Positions 12,588-47,122 of a stretch of 64,000 nucleotides of DNA are shown piece by piece. This DNA is from Octopus vulgaris (Eukaryota), in the NCBI GenBank assembly GCA_951406725.2, contig OX597834.1, forward strand, positions 15,314,001-15,378,000, given 5' to 3'. Position 1 is the first letter of the stretch, and the number at the start of each line of letters is the position of its first letter. The position numbers and the translations under genes are program-made. The notes below the pieces were generated by a model. It saw nothing but the letters and a program-made list of their open reading frames with translations, searched no databases and was not told where the DNA came from.

Positions 12588-12803
12588 ATTCTTCTCTACT
12601 CTATGCACAAGGCCCGGAATTTGGGGGAGGGGGCCAGTTGATTAGATCGACCGCAGTATGCAACTTGCACTTAATCTATCGACTCCTGAAAGGATGAAAG
12701 GCAAAGTCGACCTCGGCGGAATTTGAACTCAGAACGTAGCGGCAGACTAAATACCGCTAAGCATTTCGTCCGGAGTGCTAACGTTTCTGCCAGCTTGCCG
12801 CCT
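12588..12803 (-). mobile_element. SINE family B, GGCCTTGTGC-tail variant
   Basis: Reverse complement of family B head and core with the second tail type. Confidence 0.85.
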
Positions 12804-12834
12804 TATCAAGCTTTTGAATATTATAGGAACTAAA

Positions 12835-13134
12835 AGGCGGCGAGCTGGCAGAAACGTTAGCACTCTGGACGAAATGCTTAGCGGTATTTCGTCTGCTGCT
12901 ACGTTCTGAGTTCAAATTCCGACGTGGTCGCCTTTGCCTTTCATCCTTTCGGGGTCGATTAAGTAAGTACCAGTTACGCACTGTGGTCGATATAATCGAC
13001 TTAATCCGTTTGTCTGTCCTTGTTTGTCCCCTCTGTGTTTAACCCCTTGTGGGTAGTAAAGAAATAGGTATTTCGTCTGCCGCTACGTTCTGAGTTCAAA
13101 TTCCTCCGAGGTCGTCTTTGCCTTTCATCCTTTC
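12835..13134 (+). mobile_element. SINE family B, Tx1-like tail, followed by a partial second core (13067-13134)
   Basis: GGCGGCGAGCTGGCAGAAACGTTAG head; TTTGTCTGTCCTTGTTTGTCCCCTCT...AAAGAAATA tail ending 13066. Confidence 0.9.
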
Positions 13135-18199: not shown

Positions 18200-18815
18200 C
18201 CGACCACATGGTTCCGGGTTCAGTCCCACTGCGTAGCACCTTGGGCAAGTGTCTTCTGCTATAGCCTCGGGCCGATTGAAGCCTTGTCAGTGTATTTGGT
18301 AGACGAAAACTGAAATAATCCCGTCGTATATACATACATATATGTGTGTGTGTGTGTGTGTTTGTGTGTGTGTTGGTTTGTCACCCACCGCCACTTGACA
18401 ACTGGTATTGGTATGTTTACAGGCGGCAAGCTGGCAGAAACGTTAGCACGCAGGGCGAAATGCGTAGCCGTATTTCGTCTGTCGTTACGTTGTGAGTTCA
18501 AATTCCGCCGAGGTCGACTTTGCCTTTCATCCTTTCGGGGTCGATAAATTAAGTACCAGTTACGCAATGGGGTCAATGTAATCGACTTAATACCTATGTC
18601 TGTCCTTGTTTGTCCCCTCTGTGTTTAGCCCCTTGTGGGTAATAAAGAAATAGGTATTAGTATGTTTACGTCACCGTAACTTAGCGGTTCAGAAAGAGAA
18701 ACCGAATATGTATCAGGCTTTAAAAAATACTGCGATCGTCTCATTCAACTAAAACGCTCTTCAAGGCGCTGCTTCAGTATGGCCGCATTCTAATGATTAA
18801 AACAATTAAAAGACG
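18200..18815 (+). mobile_element. SINE family A, diverged, interrupted by a family B insertion
   Basis: Family A sequence stops at 18420 and resumes at 18653. Confidence 0.85.
18421..18652 (+). mobile_element. SINE family B, Tx1-like tail, 17-bp TSD
   Basis: TSD GGTATT(G/A)GTATGTTTAC at 18404-18420 / 18653-18669. Confidence 0.93.
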
Positions 18816-23290: not shown

Positions 23291-23484
23291 CCCACATTCA
23301 TCTGTATGCGTATTAACGGGTTTCATTATTTCCATTGGTCGAAGTTCCACAAATGTAAGTTTGCATGTCCAAGTCTTCTGCAGATATTTGGGCGGGGGCT
23401 GAGAATAATGGCAGAAAATTCATAGCTTCCGATTGGACCGTGTAGGGAAACTCCAGTGGTCTATTTATACTAAAGAGGAAATTA

Positions 23485-23716
23485 AGGCGGCGAGATGGCA
23501 GAAACGTTAGCGCGCCGGGCGAAATGCTTAGCGGTATTTCGCCCGTCGTTACGTTGTGAGTTCAAATTCCGCCGAGGTCGACTTTGCCTTTCATCCTTTC
23601 AGGGTCGATAAATAAAGTAGCAATTTCGCACTCGGGTCGATGTAATCGACTTAATCCCTTTATCTCTCCTTGTTTGTCCCCTCTGTGTTTAGCCCCTTGT
23701 GGGTAGTAAAGAAATA
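23485..23716 (+). mobile_element. SINE family B, Tx1-like tail, 16-bp TSD
   Basis: TSD TATACTAAAGAGGAAA at 23466-23481 / 23717-23732. Confidence 0.92.
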
Positions 23717-24089
23717 TATACTAAAGAGGAAAGACGAACGACACTAAATATTCTTGTTGTTTCACGTGTTGGAACGAACAGCATCATTTGGTTTTCCACC
23801 TTTAGAACCTGAGAGATCAGTAATATCAGGTGAAAATGTATAGTTGCTGCTACTATACCGCTTGACAAGGCAAACAGCTTAGTGATAACTTTTTTCATTT
23901 TTATGAGGCCTATTTGAAATGAGAATGAGCGCTGCTGACGGACGCAAATGAAATATCCTTACTATAACCTAGCAAGGTTCCTCTAACCAGCATTTGCATA
24001 TAGGCAAAATAAAATAGAAATAACCTTGTCAATGACATTTTCCTTGTATATCTGCAAACTATATTACGCTATATATTCTTTGCTCGAAA

Positions 24090-28496: not shown

Positions 28497-28954
28497 CATA
28501 CATACATACACACACACACGTACGCACACACGCAGAAAGGGACGACTTGTAACCTTCGCTTTGTTTTTGTTTGGACGGTATTTTTGTGTTTTTGTTATGA
28601 ATATTTGACTGTTATTTCTAGCAATGTGAGTGACATCATTGTAGCTATTTAATTCATTCTACCATAAAGGTTCCTAACGTTGTTTGCTTGATTTACCTCT
28701 TTGCAATTTTTTTAAAGTTAATACTTATCCTCTTATCTAAACAGAAAAAGAAATTTATTAAAGAAATTTATTTTCAGAGGGCAAATAATTATTCTTTTCC
28801 TACAGAAAATTCTTAGTTATCCCTACATGTACGTTTCACCTACAAATTTTGCCCAAATAAAGCCACTTAACACCAACACTTCCTGCTGTCGGTAATTTTA
28901 CCGGAGTTCATTTTGTTGTTAGCATTCAGACCATGTTTTCGATCCAAAGATATC

Positions 28955-29185
28955 TATTTCTTTACTGCCCACAAGGGGCTAAACATACAGGGGACAAACA
29001 AGGACGGACAAAGAGATGAAGTTGATTACATTGACCCCAGTGCGAAACTGGTACTTAATTTATCGACCCTGAAAGGATGAAAGGCAAAGTCGACCTCGGC
29101 GGAATTTGAACTCAGAAAGTAACGACAGACGAAATACGGCTACGCATTTCGCCCAGCGTGCTAACGATTCTGCTAGCTCGCCGCC
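28955..29185 (-). mobile_element. SINE family B, Tx1-like tail, 17-bp TSD
   Basis: TSD TTCGATCCAAAGATATC at 28938-28954 / 29186-29202. Confidence 0.92.
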
Positions 29186-30482
29186 TTCGATCCAAAGATA
29201 TCTTCCGCCTCCTGCTATTCTGGAAGGTCTCGGGAATGGTGAAAAGCTACGCCTAGCTGCTTGACTAAAAGATAAAAAACAATATTGTTCTGATATATTA
29301 GAATGGTGTGGTAAGAGGAATACTTCATTGCATTTTCTAACAGGTCGTGTGGCCACGTGGTACGATCATGTCTATCGTGCATTCATGGGTTTATTAATTT
29401 TGCGTGGGCGTGAGGACAGCAATGTCTCGATGGCGTACTGGACGGTCAGTCAACGACTGTTAGTATCCACTAAAACTGTTATTATTGAATCTAGAGAAGA
29501 ATTATTACATCTAGAATAACTCTATTATCATTGTATCTCACCAATGCGAGAGACAAAGAACCAAAGAACATGTCGAGAGAGTTAACTTACTTGCCTCCGT
29601 TCAATTATCGATTAATATAGATTAGCGCTTACCTTAGTAAATATGCTAAGAAAAGTTATGAACGTCACGACTCCCCGTTGTCTTTTCCCATCCCACTTCA
29701 ATTATAGGCACCATTGTGTCTTCACAAACAAAGATGATAATCTAATACTTGAGAAGTTCTTATTTGAAGCAACTAACTCTAACCACTAAGTAACTCGTTG
29801 ATCGTGGAATTTTGCCAGGGAATGTTGGTGCTGAGAGAACGTTGATGGCGTTAAAGAGATTAGCTATTCTTCATATTCTCATTTGCATCTTATTCATTTT
29901 ACTTGACGTCATAATCTAGCTTTGTAGCTGCGGTTATGAAAAGTCAATACCCTCTGCCGTGTAGTCAATTTAAATGTACATTTATGAAATTCGTTCAAGA
30001 AAACGTAGCCGAGGTTAAAACATTCCATCGCTCCGACCACACAAATACGTTTTCGTTAGAAGTTTGTGATTTCGGTTTCTTATATAGTTCTGAAATCGGC
30101 GAATACAAATAAATATACTTACATACGTATTATGTATATATATATATGTAACATATGGTATAATTATAAACAGGGCAAATTTGACCTATTTCTCTACAGA
30201 CTGAAAAAAAAATGAACAAACTTAATCGATTTTCGAACCTTATTTCGTTCTCATCAGAGGCGTCTGCACCATTATGACAGCGGCCTGTCAACGAGGATCT
30301 TAGTCCACACAGTATCAAGATATGTATACACGCACACACACACATATATATATACAAAGTAATACAGGGGTTATGGGTGCAACCCACTATGGGACAGTAT
30401 TTATCCAATATACTGTCGAGTGAATAAATAGTCCAACATTCTAATATCCGAAAGTTGATGAACAAACTAAATTTGTTTCTCC

Positions 30483-39364: not shown

Positions 39365-39960
39365 TTGAGAATTAAAATAGCCACCAAGTTCAAAACACAA
39401 CCGGCCACATATATCTTTGTGTGAGAGCACAAAGAAAAGATATATTCTTATTTCTTTATTGCCCACAAGGGGCTAAACACAGAGGGGACAAACAAGGACA
39501 GACAAAGGGATTAAATCGATTACATCGACCCCAGTGCGTAACTGGTACTTAATTTATCGACCCCGAAAGGATGAAAGCCAAAGTCGACCTCGGCGAAGTT
39601 TGAACTCAGAACGTAACGGCAGACGAAATACTGCTAAGCATTTCGCCCGGCGTGCTTACCATTCTGCCAGCTCGACGCTTTAACATTTTAAAGATATATT
39701 CTGACGTGGAAACCGGCTGCCCTTTGGACACGAATGTGGCTAGAAAAATACAAGAGAAAGCGGACATCATTGGACCATTGATAAGGAGTTTGCAAATCCA
39801 GTAACCAAGGTACACTTTCAGTTTCATACCTATTATTATTAGAGCTACAGAATACATACCTACCCATCTGGAGCAGAGTATGACTAAACTTGGGATCTTG
39901 GGGAGAGAATACAAATCCTTAACGTCGAGATGTCTGGGACTATACTAATCTCGAACACCT
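39365..39960 (+). pseudogene. Restriction-like endonuclease domain relic of an R4/NeSL-type non-LTR element, interrupted by a family B SINE
   Basis: KHNRPH (normally HNRPD) before the SINE; after it, GCPLDTNVARKIQEKADIIGPLIRSLQ and FSFIPIII. Confidence 0.65.
39449..39680 (-). mobile_element. SINE family B, Tx1-like tail, ~13-bp TSD
   Basis: TSD AAAGATATATTCT at 39436-39448 / 39690-39702. Confidence 0.9.
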
Positions 39961-41219: not shown

Positions 41220-41267
<48 letters not shown>

Positions 41268-41278
41268 GTAATATATTC

Positions 41279-41313
41279 ACAGGAGTGGCTGTGTGGTAAG
41301 TAGCTTGCTAACC
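41279..41313 (+). mobile_element. SINE family A, 5' stub (A-box region) left of the LINE
   Basis: CAGGAGTGGCTGTGTGGTAAGTAGCTTGCTAACC matches the head of other family A copies (e.g. 48277 onward). Confidence 0.9.
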
Positions 41314-41702
41314 TCACTGACAGAAGAGTGACTTTGCCTACCGTACTACGGTTTGGACGCGTTTTCTTCCCGGTAAGAGTTTTGCTGTGTTGTTAATTGT
41401 TGAATTCCTACTACTGAAAATTTGCCTTTAAACGTTGCTGAACTGTCTTGTTCTCCGGTTTTACCGGGAAATAATTGAATAATTTCTTACCGTTGAACTG
41501 TTAGCCACTGTGGCTTTTTATTTACGTGACTATATATAGTCCTGCCAGACTATTTTCGTGCCCCTCCCCCGAATGGGGGTGGGAATTGGAATTTTTGAAC
41601 TGCTTTTTTGAACTACTTTGGAAGAAAAACTTTCTATAGGTTTCCCAGTTTCGTGGGAAACCAATATTCGTAATTTTTGTGTTGTCTAATTTCAACAGAA
41701 TA

Positions 41703-43105
41703 ATGTCTGTTGAAATTATTCACGAAAGTAGTGCTCTTGAGGAGAGCAATGTTAAAAAATTTTCTGAGGTAGCCGCAGTGGCTACCGAGAAGATTGACAT
41801 CGATGTCAACCAGCTCGTCGAGCTATTTAAAAGAATGCAAGAGGAGGGTGGTGATGTTAAAATATCACCCTCCGCCAGTATCGTGGAGACCGAGAAGCGG
41901 ACCGTAGTGTTTAAAACTTTCTGTCCACAAAGCAGAAGGTTCAAACACTTTGAAAAAAGCACCATCGAGAAATGCCTGTCCCCGATTTGGAAGGACATCG
42001 TGTACGTCGCCAGGGGACGGGCATATGGCACTGTGGATGTCCGCTTCTCGGGGGAAGAAATGGCCCGCGGGCATTCTGTGAACCCCCTAAAAACCAAGGA
42101 GGTGGTACTTTTTCCAAGCTATAGGGGACGCAGGTCGTCCCGGGTCAGGATTGTAGAAGCCCCGCCGGACGTAGATCCGGTAGAGGTAGTGGCCGCCCTG
42201 TTATATAAAAGGGCGGACAAAATAAAAATACTAGAAGTAACATGCTCTACCCCTCGATTTTGGCTCGGGCGTAACATTAATATATTAATTCAAGGAACAG
42301 CGGAGGACCTGCAGCTCCTTCCTGAGAGGGTGCCCGTGGGCGAGAACGTAGCCCTCAGGGTACAGGTCGAAGGCCGAAAACCCACCTGTTACGCCTGCAA
42401 CAAAAAGGGCCACATTCGTGTAGACTGTCCAGACAAGCAAAAGAAACCGCAGACACCAGGCCCCTCAGATAATAAAAAAGTCCCTACCCTTGCAAACACA
42501 CCTACCCCTACAAAAACAAAAAATCCCACTCCTGCTGTTACGGTGCCAACCCCAAAACAGACTGAAGAAAAAACCCAGCCCTCGCACTCACAAACCCCTA
42601 CACTATTAAAACCTCCCACCCCCTAAAAACTGCGGCGCCTACCGAACAAACTATTGCTACCACAGACGATACCATGGAGGTATCAGAGGGGGGATTTACA
42701 CCAGTTCGTAAAAGAATTCGTGCAGCATCCCCGTCCACATCCCCTACAAAAAATAATAAAAACAAAGACACACCACAGACACGGAAAAAAAAATCCCGCT
42801 CAACTGGCCCAGAAAAAGAAGACAAAAAAGAAAATGAACTCATATTAATTGAATTCGACACACAAGACAAATACATAAACGATATTGTGGTTCAGCATCA
42901 GTCAGCAAGACTGTACAACAAATACAAAGATCGAAATAGACACGCGTGGATTGCGGAAACAACGTTCAAACAATTAAAAGACAGACACCCAGACGCCATC
43001 CGGCATATCGCGAACTTGCAGGACTATCTGAAGAAAGAGGAGAAAGAAGGGGCCCACAAACGTGTGGTGAGGTCGGCCCCCACCTCTCCAACGAAATGTA
43101 AGTAG
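41703..43105 (+). CDS. Tx1-type ORF1 (gag-like nucleic-acid chaperone, zinc knuckle), split by one -1 frameshift at C-run 42619-42623
   Basis: ATG at 41703 (MSVEIIHE...), CX2CX4HX4C motif CYACNKKGHIRVDC, then a P/T/K-rich tail. One extra C joins ORF 41679..42626 to the open frame of ORF 42674..43105 (~467 aa). Confidence 0.85.
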
Positions 43106-43121
43106 AACCTTTACTTTTGTA

Positions 43122-46100
43122 ATGGCTTCGCTTAACCTTGGTTGTTTAAATGTGCGTGGTCTGAGTTCGAAGTGGAAGCAGGCTTGTTTCCTCGACGACC
43201 TCAGATCACATGATATACATGTGATGGTTGCTACAGAGACCAAGCTGGACAGCCTACAAACCTTCTCGCCTCTCCTGAATGGCTACGAGAAAATCATGTC
43301 TCCTGGCCAGACCGGAGGGCGAGGGGGCGTAGTGGTACTGATCCGTAAAGACTTGGCTCTACAGACAAGTACAGTCTATGTAGACCCAGAAGGTGGGCTG
43401 GTCGTCCTTGATGTGACATACAGCAGTAAGGCCTTCAGGTTAATCGGACTCTATGCACCTTGTGCTAGAGGTTTCCAAACTGATTTTTATCGGCGCCTAG
43501 AGGGCTTTCTCGTGACGTCGAAGACTTTAGTGATATTAGGGGACTTTAATGCTATCGTTGACGTACACATCGATAGCGTTGGCTCGATCTATAGGAAAGT
43601 GAACTCACGTCTCGTGGATCTGCTTAAGCGGTTTCAGCTAGCAGATCGTTACAGACTTGACCATCCGAACGTCCCAGAGTGGACCTGGATGAGTGGCGAC
43701 GGAAGGTTCAAGTCTTATCTAGACAGGATAGTGATAAGAACTAGAGATAAGTCTAGTTTCAGTTGTCCACAGCTCGTCCAGGTGCCCTATACTGACCATA
43801 GAATGGTCACGTGTAGACTGGACATAGATAGCACACTTAAGATAGGAACCGGCTACTGGAAGCTGAACAAGTCTATTTTGACACGCGAGGCATACCGTAG
43901 CCGGATTAAGGTGTTAGTGCAGAGGGCGTTAACCGGAGCCGTGGTTAATAACCGGTGGTGGTTCACCCTCAAAAGAGCCATTCGATTCGAGTCCATTAGA
44001 TTTAGTAAACAACTAAGACTAGATAGGGCTAGAATAGAAGGGCAACTAGTTAAGAACTTAGAGGAGGCGTTGAGGTTGGGCTCTGCATCTCACATTTTAG
44101 CGGCGAGAACGGCATTAGACCGTCACCTCAAAACCAAACATGAGGGATGTAGAGTCCGGGCTAAAGTACGAGCATTGGGCCGTGAGGGAATTAATGTTGC
44201 CGGATGGGCCCGTACGATAGAAACACAGCGTGGAAACGATGCCACAATTGGGTCTCTTGTTGATGAAAACGGATGCACGATCAAGAAGCGGGACGAGATG
44301 TGTGAGGCACTCCACAAGCACTTCGCCGAGTTGTTCGGGAGGTGCGGGACGCTGGATCATGGTGAGGCCCTTAGGGACTTCCTGTCTGGTGGCCCGCGCC
44401 TCTCGACACGAGAGGCTGAGTGCTGTGAAGGGCCAATCACAGCCGAGGAAGTAATCGAGGTGTTGGGCAAGTGCCCCGGGGAGAAGTCGCCGGGTCTCGA
44501 TGGTCTGCCCTATGAATTTTATAGAAGTATGCCAAACTTGTTCGGGCACCTGCTGGCTAGCGTCTACGCCAACTGGCAGCAGAATGGGAGAATTCCCAAG
44601 TCTGCGAGCCGGGGGGCGGTGACCTTGATCAGGAAGGACCCGAACAAGGGGGACGAGATAGGGAACTTCAGGCCCATAACTCTGTTAAACACAGAGTTAA
44701 AGATTCTGGCCAAGGTGCTAGCAAAAAGGTTGGCGCGGGTCGTGGACAAACTTGTCGGGGAAGCGCAAACGTGCGCTATCCCCGGCAGAACGATCCACGA
44801 CAATCTCCACCTTATACGCTACTCCTTAGAGAGGGTGGGGAAGCTTTCTGGCGCAGGGGGAGCACTGGTACATTTAGACCAGTCCAAAGCATTTGATAGG
44901 GTCGACCATCGGTACCTGGCGGCGGTCCTCGGAGAGGCTGGCCTAGGCCCGACCTTTCGAGGTTGGATCGCTGCTTTGTATAGCGACATCGAGTCTGTAG
45001 TCAAGGTGAACGGTTCCTTTTCGAAGCCGTTCAGGATCGAGCGTTCAGTTCGTCAAGGGTGTCCCCTGTCCTCGCTCCTATACGTATTGGCTCTTGAGCC
45101 TTTGCTGCGGAAGTTGGAGGCACTAGGGGGCGCGCCGCATGATCTATGGTGTGGAAGAGGAGCTACGGCGTATGCGGATGACACCTCCATCATCGTGGCA
45201 GACGAAGGCCAGCTTCCAGTGGTGGAAGAGGCCATAAAAAGCTACGAGGCGGTGGCAGGAGCAAAGGTTAACAAGGACAAGTCGGTCGGTTTGCAACTCG
45301 GCACCTGGAGGGGCAAGCCGATGCCGTCCAATAACGTCGTAGGGCGTTGGACGGAAGGTCCTGTTAAGCTGCTCGGAGTCTGGTTCGGGCCAGACCTCCA
45401 GATTGAGAAAAATTGGAGTGAGGTGGCCAACAAGGTGACCGCTCTAACCCAGACCTGGTCTGGGCGGGCGTTATCCCTGCTAGGGAAGGCGGAGGTGGTG
45501 CAGATGTTTATAGCATCAGTAATCACCTACCGTCTGACCGTGGTGCCTTGCCCCGATTTGTGGCTGAACAAGTTGGAGAGAATCCTTTTCCGATTTTTGT
45601 GGAAAGGAGGAAAGCCACTTGTAAAGCGCTCTGTCTGCTGCCAGAAACCGCTAAAGGGTGGGCTAGGGATGCCTTGGCTGAGGATGCGAAAACTCGCGTT
45701 AAGGTTGAGGCACCTCTGGCTTTACCTGGATGGAGAGCAGGTGTGGTCGCCGCACGTCCGGTTCTACCTTCCCCAGTTAACATCCCTAACGGACATCGGT
45801 GCATGGATCAAGCGGAGACCTAAACTGAGTGAATGGCATTTGGAGTGCCGTCAGGCGCTCCAGCTACTATCTCGGGTGGGCAACGCCGGCAACAGGAGTT
45901 CCACCACGGATTTCTATAGCGGGTTAGTGGAGATTAAGTCCGAAGACGCCTTGGGGAGACCCTGGGCTACGATGAAAATCAGTTGATCAACCTGTTCCGG
46001 AGGACGTTCGGGCCGGGGTATCTGGATAATTACCAGAAATCCCTAGCCTGGCAGTGTTTCCGTGCGGCTTTACCTGTTCGCGACAAGCTGTCAAGGCACG

Positions 46101-46522
46101 GTAGTGCCGTCTCGCCGACATGCCCGCGATGTGAGCAGGATAGGGAGACCGTCTTGCACGCATTCGTGGAGTGTCCGGAGTTATCGGGACTTATAGCTTT
46201 TGTAGAACAACTGTTGTCAGTGATGGGAAGAGTACAGCTATCAGCTGAGTCTATCATCGAGATTGTGCCGCCCCCTTTCCTTAACAGGGAAAGAAAGGCT
46301 TGTTTTTTCTGTGTAGTAGCCATACTGAAAGAAACAGTATGGAAGACGCGTACGAAAGGTATAGTGACAGGCACCTTTGTCTCCGGCCAGGGGTTGATTA
46401 ACTTTTTTAGTTACCACCTCAGTAGCAAAATCAGGCTGGAGAAGAGGTGTCTGTCACGAGATATGTTTGTGAAAAGATGGAAGCCTGTGGCATACAAGAT
46501 GGGTATGTTTGGCACCAGGTAA
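43122..46522 (+). CDS. Tx1-type ORF2 (APE endonuclease, reverse transcriptase, C-terminal zinc finger), split by one -1 frameshift at G-run 45953-45956
   Basis: EN motifs NVRGL, ETK, GDFNA, LDRI, TDH. RT motifs KSPGLDG, FRPITLLN, LDQSKAFDRV, VRQGCPLS, YADD. CPRC-x8-H-x4-C in ORF 45983..46522. One extra G gives ~1133 aa. Confidence 0.93.
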
Positions 46523-46750
46523 GTGTGACCGGATCAGAAAGTAAAGGTTCTACCCGGATGGCTGGGTGTCCGTCCTTCGACATGATCATTAATATTTTTA
46601 AACATTGCCTTCGTAAAATTCATTGTTTATAATCTTATCCGTAATTTCATTCGAAAATTGTAACTGTGTTAAGCTACTTCACCCTTTATATTTGTCTGTC
46701 CTTGTTTGTCCCCTCTTTGTAAATGCCTAAATGGCAAATTATATGAAATA

Positions 46751-47122
46751 AAGTAGCTTGTTTACCAACCACATGGTTCCGGGTTCAGTCCTACTGCGTG
46801 GCACCTTGGGCAAGTGTCTTCTACTATAGCCTCGGGCCGACCAAAGCCTTGTGAGTGGATTTGGTAGACGGAAACTGAAAGAAGCCCGTCGTATATATGT
46901 ATATATATGTATGTGCGTGTATGTTTGTGTGTCTGTGTTTGTCCCCCAACATCGCTTGACACCGTCACATAGCGGTTCGGCAAACCAGACCGATAGAATA
47001 AGTACTGGGCTTACAAAGAATAAGTCCCGGGGTCGAGTTGCTCGATTAAAGGCGGTGCACCAGCATGGCCGCAGTCAAAATGACTGAAACAAGTAAAAAG
47101 AAAAAAAGAGAAAAGAAAAGAG
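46751..47122 (+). mobile_element. SINE family A, remainder (B-box, core, internal microsatellite, tail) right of the LINE
   Basis: Resumes the family A sequence where the 5' stub stops: GGTTCAGTCC B-box, ACCTTGGGCAAGTG, ...GACTGAAACAAGTAAAAAG tail. Confidence 0.93.

Follow-up and report, generated by a model that had tools for sequence, protein, structure and literature searches.

The window, a stretch of 64,000 nucleotides of the Octopus vulgaris genome, contains a copy of the short interspersed repeat SINE A that is interrupted by a LINE. The features of the locus, numbered from the first base of the window, are as follows.

41279..41297, plus strand: 5' part of the SINE A head, with the A-box-like TGGCTGTGTGG at 41286-41296
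between 41297 and 41298: inferred bottom-strand nick, at the end of the 5' part of the SINE A head
41298-41313: 16-base stretch AAGTAGCTTGCTAACC between SINE head and LINE
41298..41307, plus strand: 10 bp of the duplication that derive from the target, matching 46751-46760 exactly
41308..41313, plus strand: element-encoded 5' tip, mimicking target positions 11-16
41314-46750: LINE body, 5,437 bp
41314..41702, plus strand: LINE 5' UTR
41703..43105, plus strand: ORF1, encoding a single CCHC zinc knuckle; the window copy is frameshifted near 42618
43122..46522, plus strand: ORF2 with apurinic-type endonuclease, reverse transcriptase and C-terminal zinc finger; frameshift near 45952
46671..46679, plus strand: antisense motif AAGCTACTT in the 3' UTR, reverse complement of the 9-nt target core
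46724..46736, plus strand: 3' terminal hairpin, common to older relatives and ORF1-only passengers
46747..46752, plus strand: AATAAA hexamer across the 3' junction, four element bases and two target bases
46751..47122, plus strand: rest of the interrupted SINE A copy, beginning with AAGTAGCTTGTTTACC
46782-46791: B-box-like GGTTCAGTCC in the resumed SINE

The first-pass annotation had described a full-length LINE inserted in SINE A, with the SINE resuming at 46751 and its A and B boxes separated by the insertion, and all of this is seen directly in the sequence, though the window copy has one frameshift in each ORF. SINE A is common in the window, as had also been stated, with about 14-15 full or partial copies counted. 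The 16-bp duplication of that description is exact over 10 bp only: the 16 bases contain two mismatches, both in the last six bases (2/6 differing from the copy's own target), and these six are encoded by the element. The LINE has no poly(A) tail, and its 5' UTR has no ribozyme match in Rfam. A motif GGACG(T/C)G near position 29 of several families was considered as a fixed-distance downstream promoter element; in the LINE family of the window it lies at 57-60, and a fixed-distance element is therefore unsupported.

Both ORFs are intact in copy L058, with 467 aa in ORF1 and 1133 aa in ORF2. The ORF2 domains recognised by Pfam are PF03372, PF00078 and PF13966, and the catalytic motifs are present; the zf-CCHC domain of ORF1 scores 23 bits in the window copy (cut-off 20.8) and 20.7 bits in L058. 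Human L1 ORF2 is the best solved relative of ORF2 (E 8e-67, residues 6-870), with R2 at 6e-20. An ORF2 comprising endonuclease, reverse transcriptase (RT) and C-terminal zinc finger, besides a separate ORF1, is the make-up of L1-group non-LTR elements. The searches gave a 65% match to an Argonauta protein, and named Tx1 proteins are absent among the matches listed in the protein searches. The RT tree, which holds no named Tx1 reference, groups the family only with a protein from Argonauta and others without a name, and unites the 12 site-specific RT rows in one starred clade adjoining an (ATT)n-associated family. The window LINE is a copy of a young LINE family of the L1 group, likely of Tx1 type, and works like the transposon-targeting Tx1 elements.

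A 25-nt pattern from the LINE 3' end, including no flank, has 109 exact matches in the genome and none when reversed as a control. The sequence A+AAGTAGCTT follows in 93 of the 109. Both flanks were read for 100 copies (99 fetched copies and the window copy); the other nine comprise L011, in tandem at the core, six that match the exact core by pattern and two that were never listed. The same base after the SINE A box is occupied by 97 of the 100 copies: 89 run directly into the SINE body, six into the 5' tip of another element (L039, L042, L055, L078, L082, L187), and two lie in a damaged SINE with its head upstream (L081, L180). Three copies are found outside SINEs (L080, L083, L201), and two of these, L080 and L083, have a poor match to the core. 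At a density of about 14 SINEs per 64 kb, an insertion would meet that base and strand by chance with a probability of ~1e-4. LINEs have been regarded as target-specific where more than 20% of flanks fall in one repeat (PMC4494074); the family's share at the SINE site is 97%, and 37 of 39 older relatives share the core. Site specificity for the SINE head is confirmed. The suggestion made from the window alone, that this LINE is a SINE-targeting element, holds genome-wide in the 3' flanks and at the insertion base, in the independence of the insertions and in the controls from the same genome, which go elsewhere. The ORF1-only passengers, the tandem stacks, the element-encoded 5' tip and the antisense motif had escaped that first annotation.

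Independence of the insertions follows from near-identical LINEs residing in divergent SINE copies. The mean divergence of the LINEs is 1.6%, versus 9.7% for the first 125 bases of their SINE bodies (INDEPENDENCE: 37 full-length LINE copies), and the 15 closest LINE pairs differ by 0.09-0.28% where their SINE bodies differ by 2.4-10.4%. LINE and SINE-body distances correlate weakly (Mantel rho 0.16, p=0.11). The first 40 copies are the best-scoring ones and biased toward young copies. The 5' end is reached by 82 of the 100 copies, a full-length share that is unusual for LINEs; a SINE head lies upstream in 71 of these and the 3' end of another element in 11. Among the 18 truncated or disrupted copies, ten have the head upstream as judged by eye (the script flagged 11, of which L195 and L202 appeared doubtful by eye, and missed L081), and the truncated ones join it to internal LINE positions.

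These observations bear on the explanation that SINE head, LINE and SINE body moved as a composite unit, by 3' transduction or segmental duplication, with no targeting at all. The 5' tip is indeed inherited with the element, as such a unit would have it, but the SINE bodies are much more divergent than the LINEs and their differences do not parallel those of the LINEs, heads are joined to internal LINE positions in truncated copies, and unrelated 5' ends of many families meet the same head base. Divergent bodies together with truncated copies bearing a head exclude the composite unit, short of gene conversion having replaced the SINE bodies of most copies, and its probability is negligible. 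Four DNA runs were searched for an empty allele of the window locus in other individuals or species; head-to-body joints were seen, deriving from many other SINE copies. The LINE family is present in three of the organisms behind these four runs, with pieces of 262 and 254 bases without any difference in two of the three; for the fourth organism, only relatives of ~86-88% are among the pieces listed.

The site is older than the young family. From 150 protein matches, 39 diverged relatives (74-93% at the C terminus) were fetched, chosen across the identity range. Those ending at the same core include 33 recognised by script and four by eye (L250, L257, L262, L273); the remaining two have lost their 3' end. 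A sister family with 67% amino acid identity over ORF2 residues 471-1120 ends in (ATT)n in the 29 of 30 loci whose tail was read, and 0 of the 30 join the SINE core. A second SINE, with a tail resembling that of the LINE, has 80,068 pattern matches, and about 40 of the first 100 listed ends are followed by its own head (hand count). It was considered as a passenger at the LINE's site and rejected, as 0 of the first 100 listed ends are followed by the core. Since the sister family and the second SINE go elsewhere, the site is a property of the LINE lineage and not of the tail type.

The lineage shares its site with non-autonomous elements. The shared 3' hairpin, searched with a degenerate pattern that does not cover ends having A in final position, gave 947 matches and none in the control. 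Of 30 hairpin-pattern loci read, 25 are at the site, and one, L097, occupies another AAGT at a later position in the SINE. L095, L113, L117 and L118 were considered as a non-specific sister family and rejected; they are ends of another short repeat followed by AT-rich sequence. Most non-family hairpin matches that were fetched at length are 1.5-3 kb long and contain an ORF1-like frame, ~25-39% identical to ORF1 of the autonomous family, with no trace of ORF2 at E<=1 in seven of seven tested. Possessing ORF1 and lacking ORF2, the passengers are HAL1-like. They are found in head-to-tail tandems, both among themselves and with the LINE, and a single SINE can hold as many as five elements (L123, L137, L140). 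The oldest copy of one stack (92.8%) adjoins the B box, from which the youngest (99.5%), located at the head end, is separated by 7.5 kb. Both junctions are re-used, so that elements stack. The shared 3' hairpin, site and junction pattern suggest that the passengers are mobilised in trans by an autonomous partner, whose ORF2 the ORF1-only families would borrow via the hairpin.

The target, SINE A, is a dispersed, non-coding repeat of about 390 bp and very high copy number. Intact empty sites number at least 72,802 exact 33-mers and occupied sites about a thousand, so insertions can hardly suppress the SINE, and as a target it may offer the LINE the benefit of a 'safe haven'. ARAGORN and Rfam give no tRNA call for the SINE head, which folds into a tRNA-like acceptor stem and T arm (z -0.74) and aligns to genomic tRNA genes with a score of 25.5 (maximum of 300 shuffles 21.5). 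The head may well derive from a tRNA. The lineage may be imagined to have first targeted a real tRNA or other multicopy gene, with the SINE as a decoy that took over while multiplying, a course that is compatible with the explanation preferred here. The tRNA-like fold, the alignment above all 300 shuffles and the existence of tRNA-gene-specific LINEs in the NeSL group (PMC4640811) fit such a history; the absence of a tRNA gene from 20 of 20 flanking loci scanned, the core found after the D-loop in 0 of 35 distinct tRNA genes (10 types, a small sample) and the (ATT)n ends of the nearest sister family do not, and we hold it to be improbable. One loose core match with two mismatches occurs elsewhere in the sampled tRNA genes.

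Use of the SINE copies is uneven among subfamilies. Targets with A at +4 account for 0 of 89 in the family versus 4,572 of the 72,802 empty sites (p=0.003). This base marks an older SINE subfamily, and some of the oldest LINE relatives have A at +4. The TAAC subfamily provides the target of 52/76 full-length and 6/13 truncated copies, with a background of 32 among the first 100 empty sites listed (hand count, tip of one contig) and 6/34 in fetched flanks; relatives of 86% or less have TAAC in 0 of 24 readable targets (by eye). The LINE lineage thus follows the succession of SINE subfamilies, and timing alone could account for some of this.

A site between A and B boxes is also where the Pol III machinery (TFIIIC or TFIIIB) might tether an element to SINE heads, in the manner of Dictyostelium TRE5-A and without any reading of the DNA sequence, and the preferred SINE subfamily may be the most transcribed one. 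Tethered elements, however, insert some way off from their target (PMC3706591), unlike the LINE with its base-exact insertion, and the 11 full-length copies mentioned above have the tail of another element, not an A box, upstream. L201 lies in a sequence resembling the core; it has a 16-base duplication, and the 6.4 kb retrieved for this locus contain no SINE. This copy, and the youngest member of the stack at 7.5 kb from its B box, favour reading of the core over Pol III tethering, which is very unlikely.

At the 5' joint the tip ends in TAACC in all 73 full-length copies with complete tip and SINE body, including all 23 whose own target is not TAAC; regardless of the target, positions 11-16 therefore travel with the element. 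Tip-matching targets (n=50) have 40 precise joints and ten with an extra T, non-matching targets (n=23) six precise and 17 extra-T joints (Fisher p=1.7e-5 across both classes). The extra T arises at position 10-11 of the joint. Heritable extra-T junction variants were rejected on the tree count, the joints being scattered on the tree with 14 changes among 44 copies. Truncated copies have true duplications of up to 16 bp (L052, L075, L201, L206), while others have a short duplication or none (L031, L081, L087, L172, L209), which implies variation in the top-strand cut or in the way it is trimmed. The insertion stagger is up to 16 bp.

Near the 3' joint, the antisense motif AAGCTACTT occurs in 76 of 100,000 shuffles of the LINE tail, and folding of the read-through RNA predicts a pairing of motif and core (z -1.95). 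Its variable base was tabulated against target +4, leaving out rows with G or without a readable motif: the counts are 28/0/2/3 for older autonomous copies (p=0.002) and 25/1/0/4 for type-1 passengers (p=0.0002), the copies not being independent in either table. In type-1 passengers the motif is at a different distance from the end. Six type-2 passenger 3' ends are without the motif and yet at the site, hence it is not required. The flank query is absent from every run catalogued as RNA. In four runs presumed to be RNA, contigs cover 23-30 of 30 element bins; they show no ends and do not prove transcription.

We conclude with considerable confidence that the LINE enters an abundant SINE at a single fixed position closely following the A box, and that endonuclease reading combined with RNA pairing is the likely means. 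Nicking, read-through and pairing are inferred from the junctions. The endonuclease would read the core AAGTAGCTTG and nick the bottom strand there. Because AATAAA is completed only by the target, the transcript probably reads through into the downstream SINE, and the read-through piece would pair with the nicked strand and prime reverse transcription; pairing of read-through RNA with the target is reported for R2Ol and cited for R1Bm (PMC6530143, PMC7265360). A top-strand cut near +16 would expose an overhang, and the end of this overhang would pair with the 5' tip in its cDNA form, a match of tip and overhang giving a clean joint and a mismatch a trimmed joint with one extra T. Short target-matching pieces of RNA probably make both junctions precise in this way.

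The weight could also be shifted to the RNA as the main address label, with read-through, antisense motif and 5' tip selecting the site by pairing and a loose endonuclease only nicking. Covariation of the antisense base with target +4 in older autonomous copies and type-1 passengers, the preference for the tip-matching SINE subfamily, the lack of A at +4 in the family's targets and an endonuclease hairpin loop no different in length from those of human L1 and the (ATT)n sister all speak for it. But type-2 passengers without the motif and truncated copies without the tip are at the site as well; the subfamily shift also fits timing, no TAAC being expected in old relatives if that subfamily is young; and the endonuclease is regarded as the chief determinant of where Tx1 elements insert (PMC4494074). 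We consider the RNA unlikely to be the main label, and retain recognition of the core by the endonuclease, assisted by pairing.

A further proposal, possible but on the whole doubtful, is that the RNA forms a hairpin in which the antisense motif pairs with the read-through target sequence, so that the stem copies the target duplex, and that a four-way exchange of both strands with the DNA after the nick frees the primer and checks the site without base-pair cost. If this were true, the RNA would program part of the targeting. This would account for the way in which autonomous and ORF1-only elements, as a whole community, track a moving target through successive SINE subfamilies, and an apurinic-endonuclease LINE would be retargetable by editing a few RNA bases.

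Several Tx1 families are known to target transposons. Xenopus Tx1L targets Tx1D, crocodilian Tx1-Mar targets Mariner-N4_AMi and shares this target with SINEU passengers, Tx1-8_Crp and Tx1-4_AMi target LTR elements and Tx1-9_AMi targets Harbinger (PMC4494074); piggyBac is also among the targets of such families (PMC4494074, PMC3706591, PMC4640811, PMC5035012, PMC8869645). Like them, the octopus LINE has an apurinic endonuclease, prefers another repeat, shares its target with non-autonomous passengers and forms tandems; unlike theirs, its target is a SINE head. Tx1-Mar uses two regions, whereas the octopus LINE uses one base and one orientation in nearly all copies, and in contrast to the snRNA-headed SINEs associated with Tx1-Mar, the octopus passengers are ORF1-only elements. 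A target-matching 5' tip and an antisense motif were not found in the account of Tx1 LINEs in PMC4494074.

Other Tx1 families insert into genes or simple repeats: Keno into U2 snRNA, Mutsu into 5S rRNA, Dewa into the spacer of tRNA-Leu arrays, and Kibi and Koshi into microsatellites (PMC3706591, PMC4494074). Sequence-specific insertion into a multicopy sequence is common to all of them and the octopus LINE, and the (ATT)n sister family parallels Kibi and Koshi. The targets of Keno, Mutsu and Dewa are, however, host genes under purifying selection, while the octopus target is a mobile element changing by subfamily, and the octopus lineage, unlike these families on RNA-gene targets, follows that change.

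In R1Bm, R2Ol and SART1Bm, downstream target sequence in the RNA improves priming and added upstream target sequence raises full-length insertion (PMC6530143, PMC7265360). An internal motif of SART1 pairs with the primer strand; the octopus motif has opposite polarity, being the complement of both the top strand and the read-through RNA. The endonuclease of R2 is restriction-like, that of the octopus LINE of apurinic type. The passengers resemble HAL1 (half-L1) in being non-autonomous LINE derivatives that encode ORF1 only (PMC5753468), but HAL1 is known from mammalian L1, whereas the octopus passengers comprise many site-specific, stacked families with an ORF1 far diverged from that of the autonomous family. 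Dada elements of tRNA genes offer a parallel, their insertions being concentrated around the A box or the anticodon region in sequences of tRNA type (PMC8869645); Dada are DNA transposons with 6-7 bp duplications in real RNA genes, and the octopus element is a LINE.

In the published accounts of target-specific LINEs that were searched, no SINE target of a Tx1 LINE was found. Octopus repeat papers give L1-Tx1 families without targets in the main text (PMC13282606, PMC8967140); in the main text of PMC13282606, 13 recently active families are described and 'target' occurs 0 times, and in that of PMC9115989 'Tx1' occurs 0 times. New relative to the known transposon-targeting Tx1 LINEs are the SINE as a target class, the ORF1-only passengers and the junction evidence for RNA-target pairing at both ends.

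In genome annotation, the stacks interrupt SINE copies, and automatic repeat libraries will merge them wrongly; the high full-length share bears on tools for precise gene insertion. With a young family that retains intact copies, and with target variants that form a dated series, the gain or shift of specificity in an apurinic-type endonuclease becomes directly testable, as does the share of RNA-DNA pairing in that specificity. The same genome holds close relatives with different targets, namely the SINE A head, (ATT)n and the head of the second SINE. The usual relation, in which a SINE exploits a LINE, is reversed in this octopus: a LINE lineage and its passengers use a SINE as their habitat.

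A single target SINE (SINE A) can hold several insertions: in one copy (loci L039 and L040; G000, contig C9, 2.664-2.681 Mb) three copies of the LINE family are stacked head to tail, with the extra T of the imprecise 5' joint at every joint. At locus L097 a passenger, i.e. an ORF1-only element, occupies a second AAGT of the SINE, about 55 bases further down, and the head upstream is intact; this AAGT is a possible minor insertion site. Locus L037 carries three short partial SINE-head copies in tandem, upstream of the insertion site.

Passengers of a second type (L043, L112, L140, L171 and L204) possess a different 3' UTR, in which the antisense motif, the reverse complement of the 9-nt target core, is absent, and an ORF1 nearer to that of the autonomous element (35-44%). 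They probably represent a separate origin of ORF1-only elements.

The start of the target SINE is usually directly preceded by (TA)n (window 41224-41262 and many other loci), which suggests that the target SINE is carried not by the LINE but by an element with a preference for TA repeats. Seven tRNA-Cys-like genes are clustered within 3 kb at locus L286.

The second abundant SINE, with 80,068 ends genome-wide, is present in the window at:

12800-13070, second SINE
18420-18660, second SINE
23460-23720, second SINE
28950-29240 (-), second SINE
39445-39740 (-), second SINE

This SINE shares a 30-nt stretch with the 3' UTR of the LINE, and the terminal hairpins of both are similar. The second SINE is flanked by duplications of 13-17 bp and frequently lands in its own head; its carrier is likely another Tx1-type family.

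A young sister LINE family (L211-L240, L260) ends 3' in (ATT)n, possesses many open frames of 1145 aa and forms tandem arrays with a period of about 5.87 kb, which fill the small contigs C47 and C50. This family may carry a third short repeat (L095, L113, L117 and L118), in which a terminal hairpin of the LINE type is followed by ATT-rich sequence.

Among the listed 5' ends, many families contain GCGCATGCG, ACTTCCGG, CCATTTTGG or GGACG(T/C)G motifs within the first 60 bases, resembling NRF1, ETS, YY1 and DPE sites. These motifs are likely internal Pol II promoters, turning over quickly.
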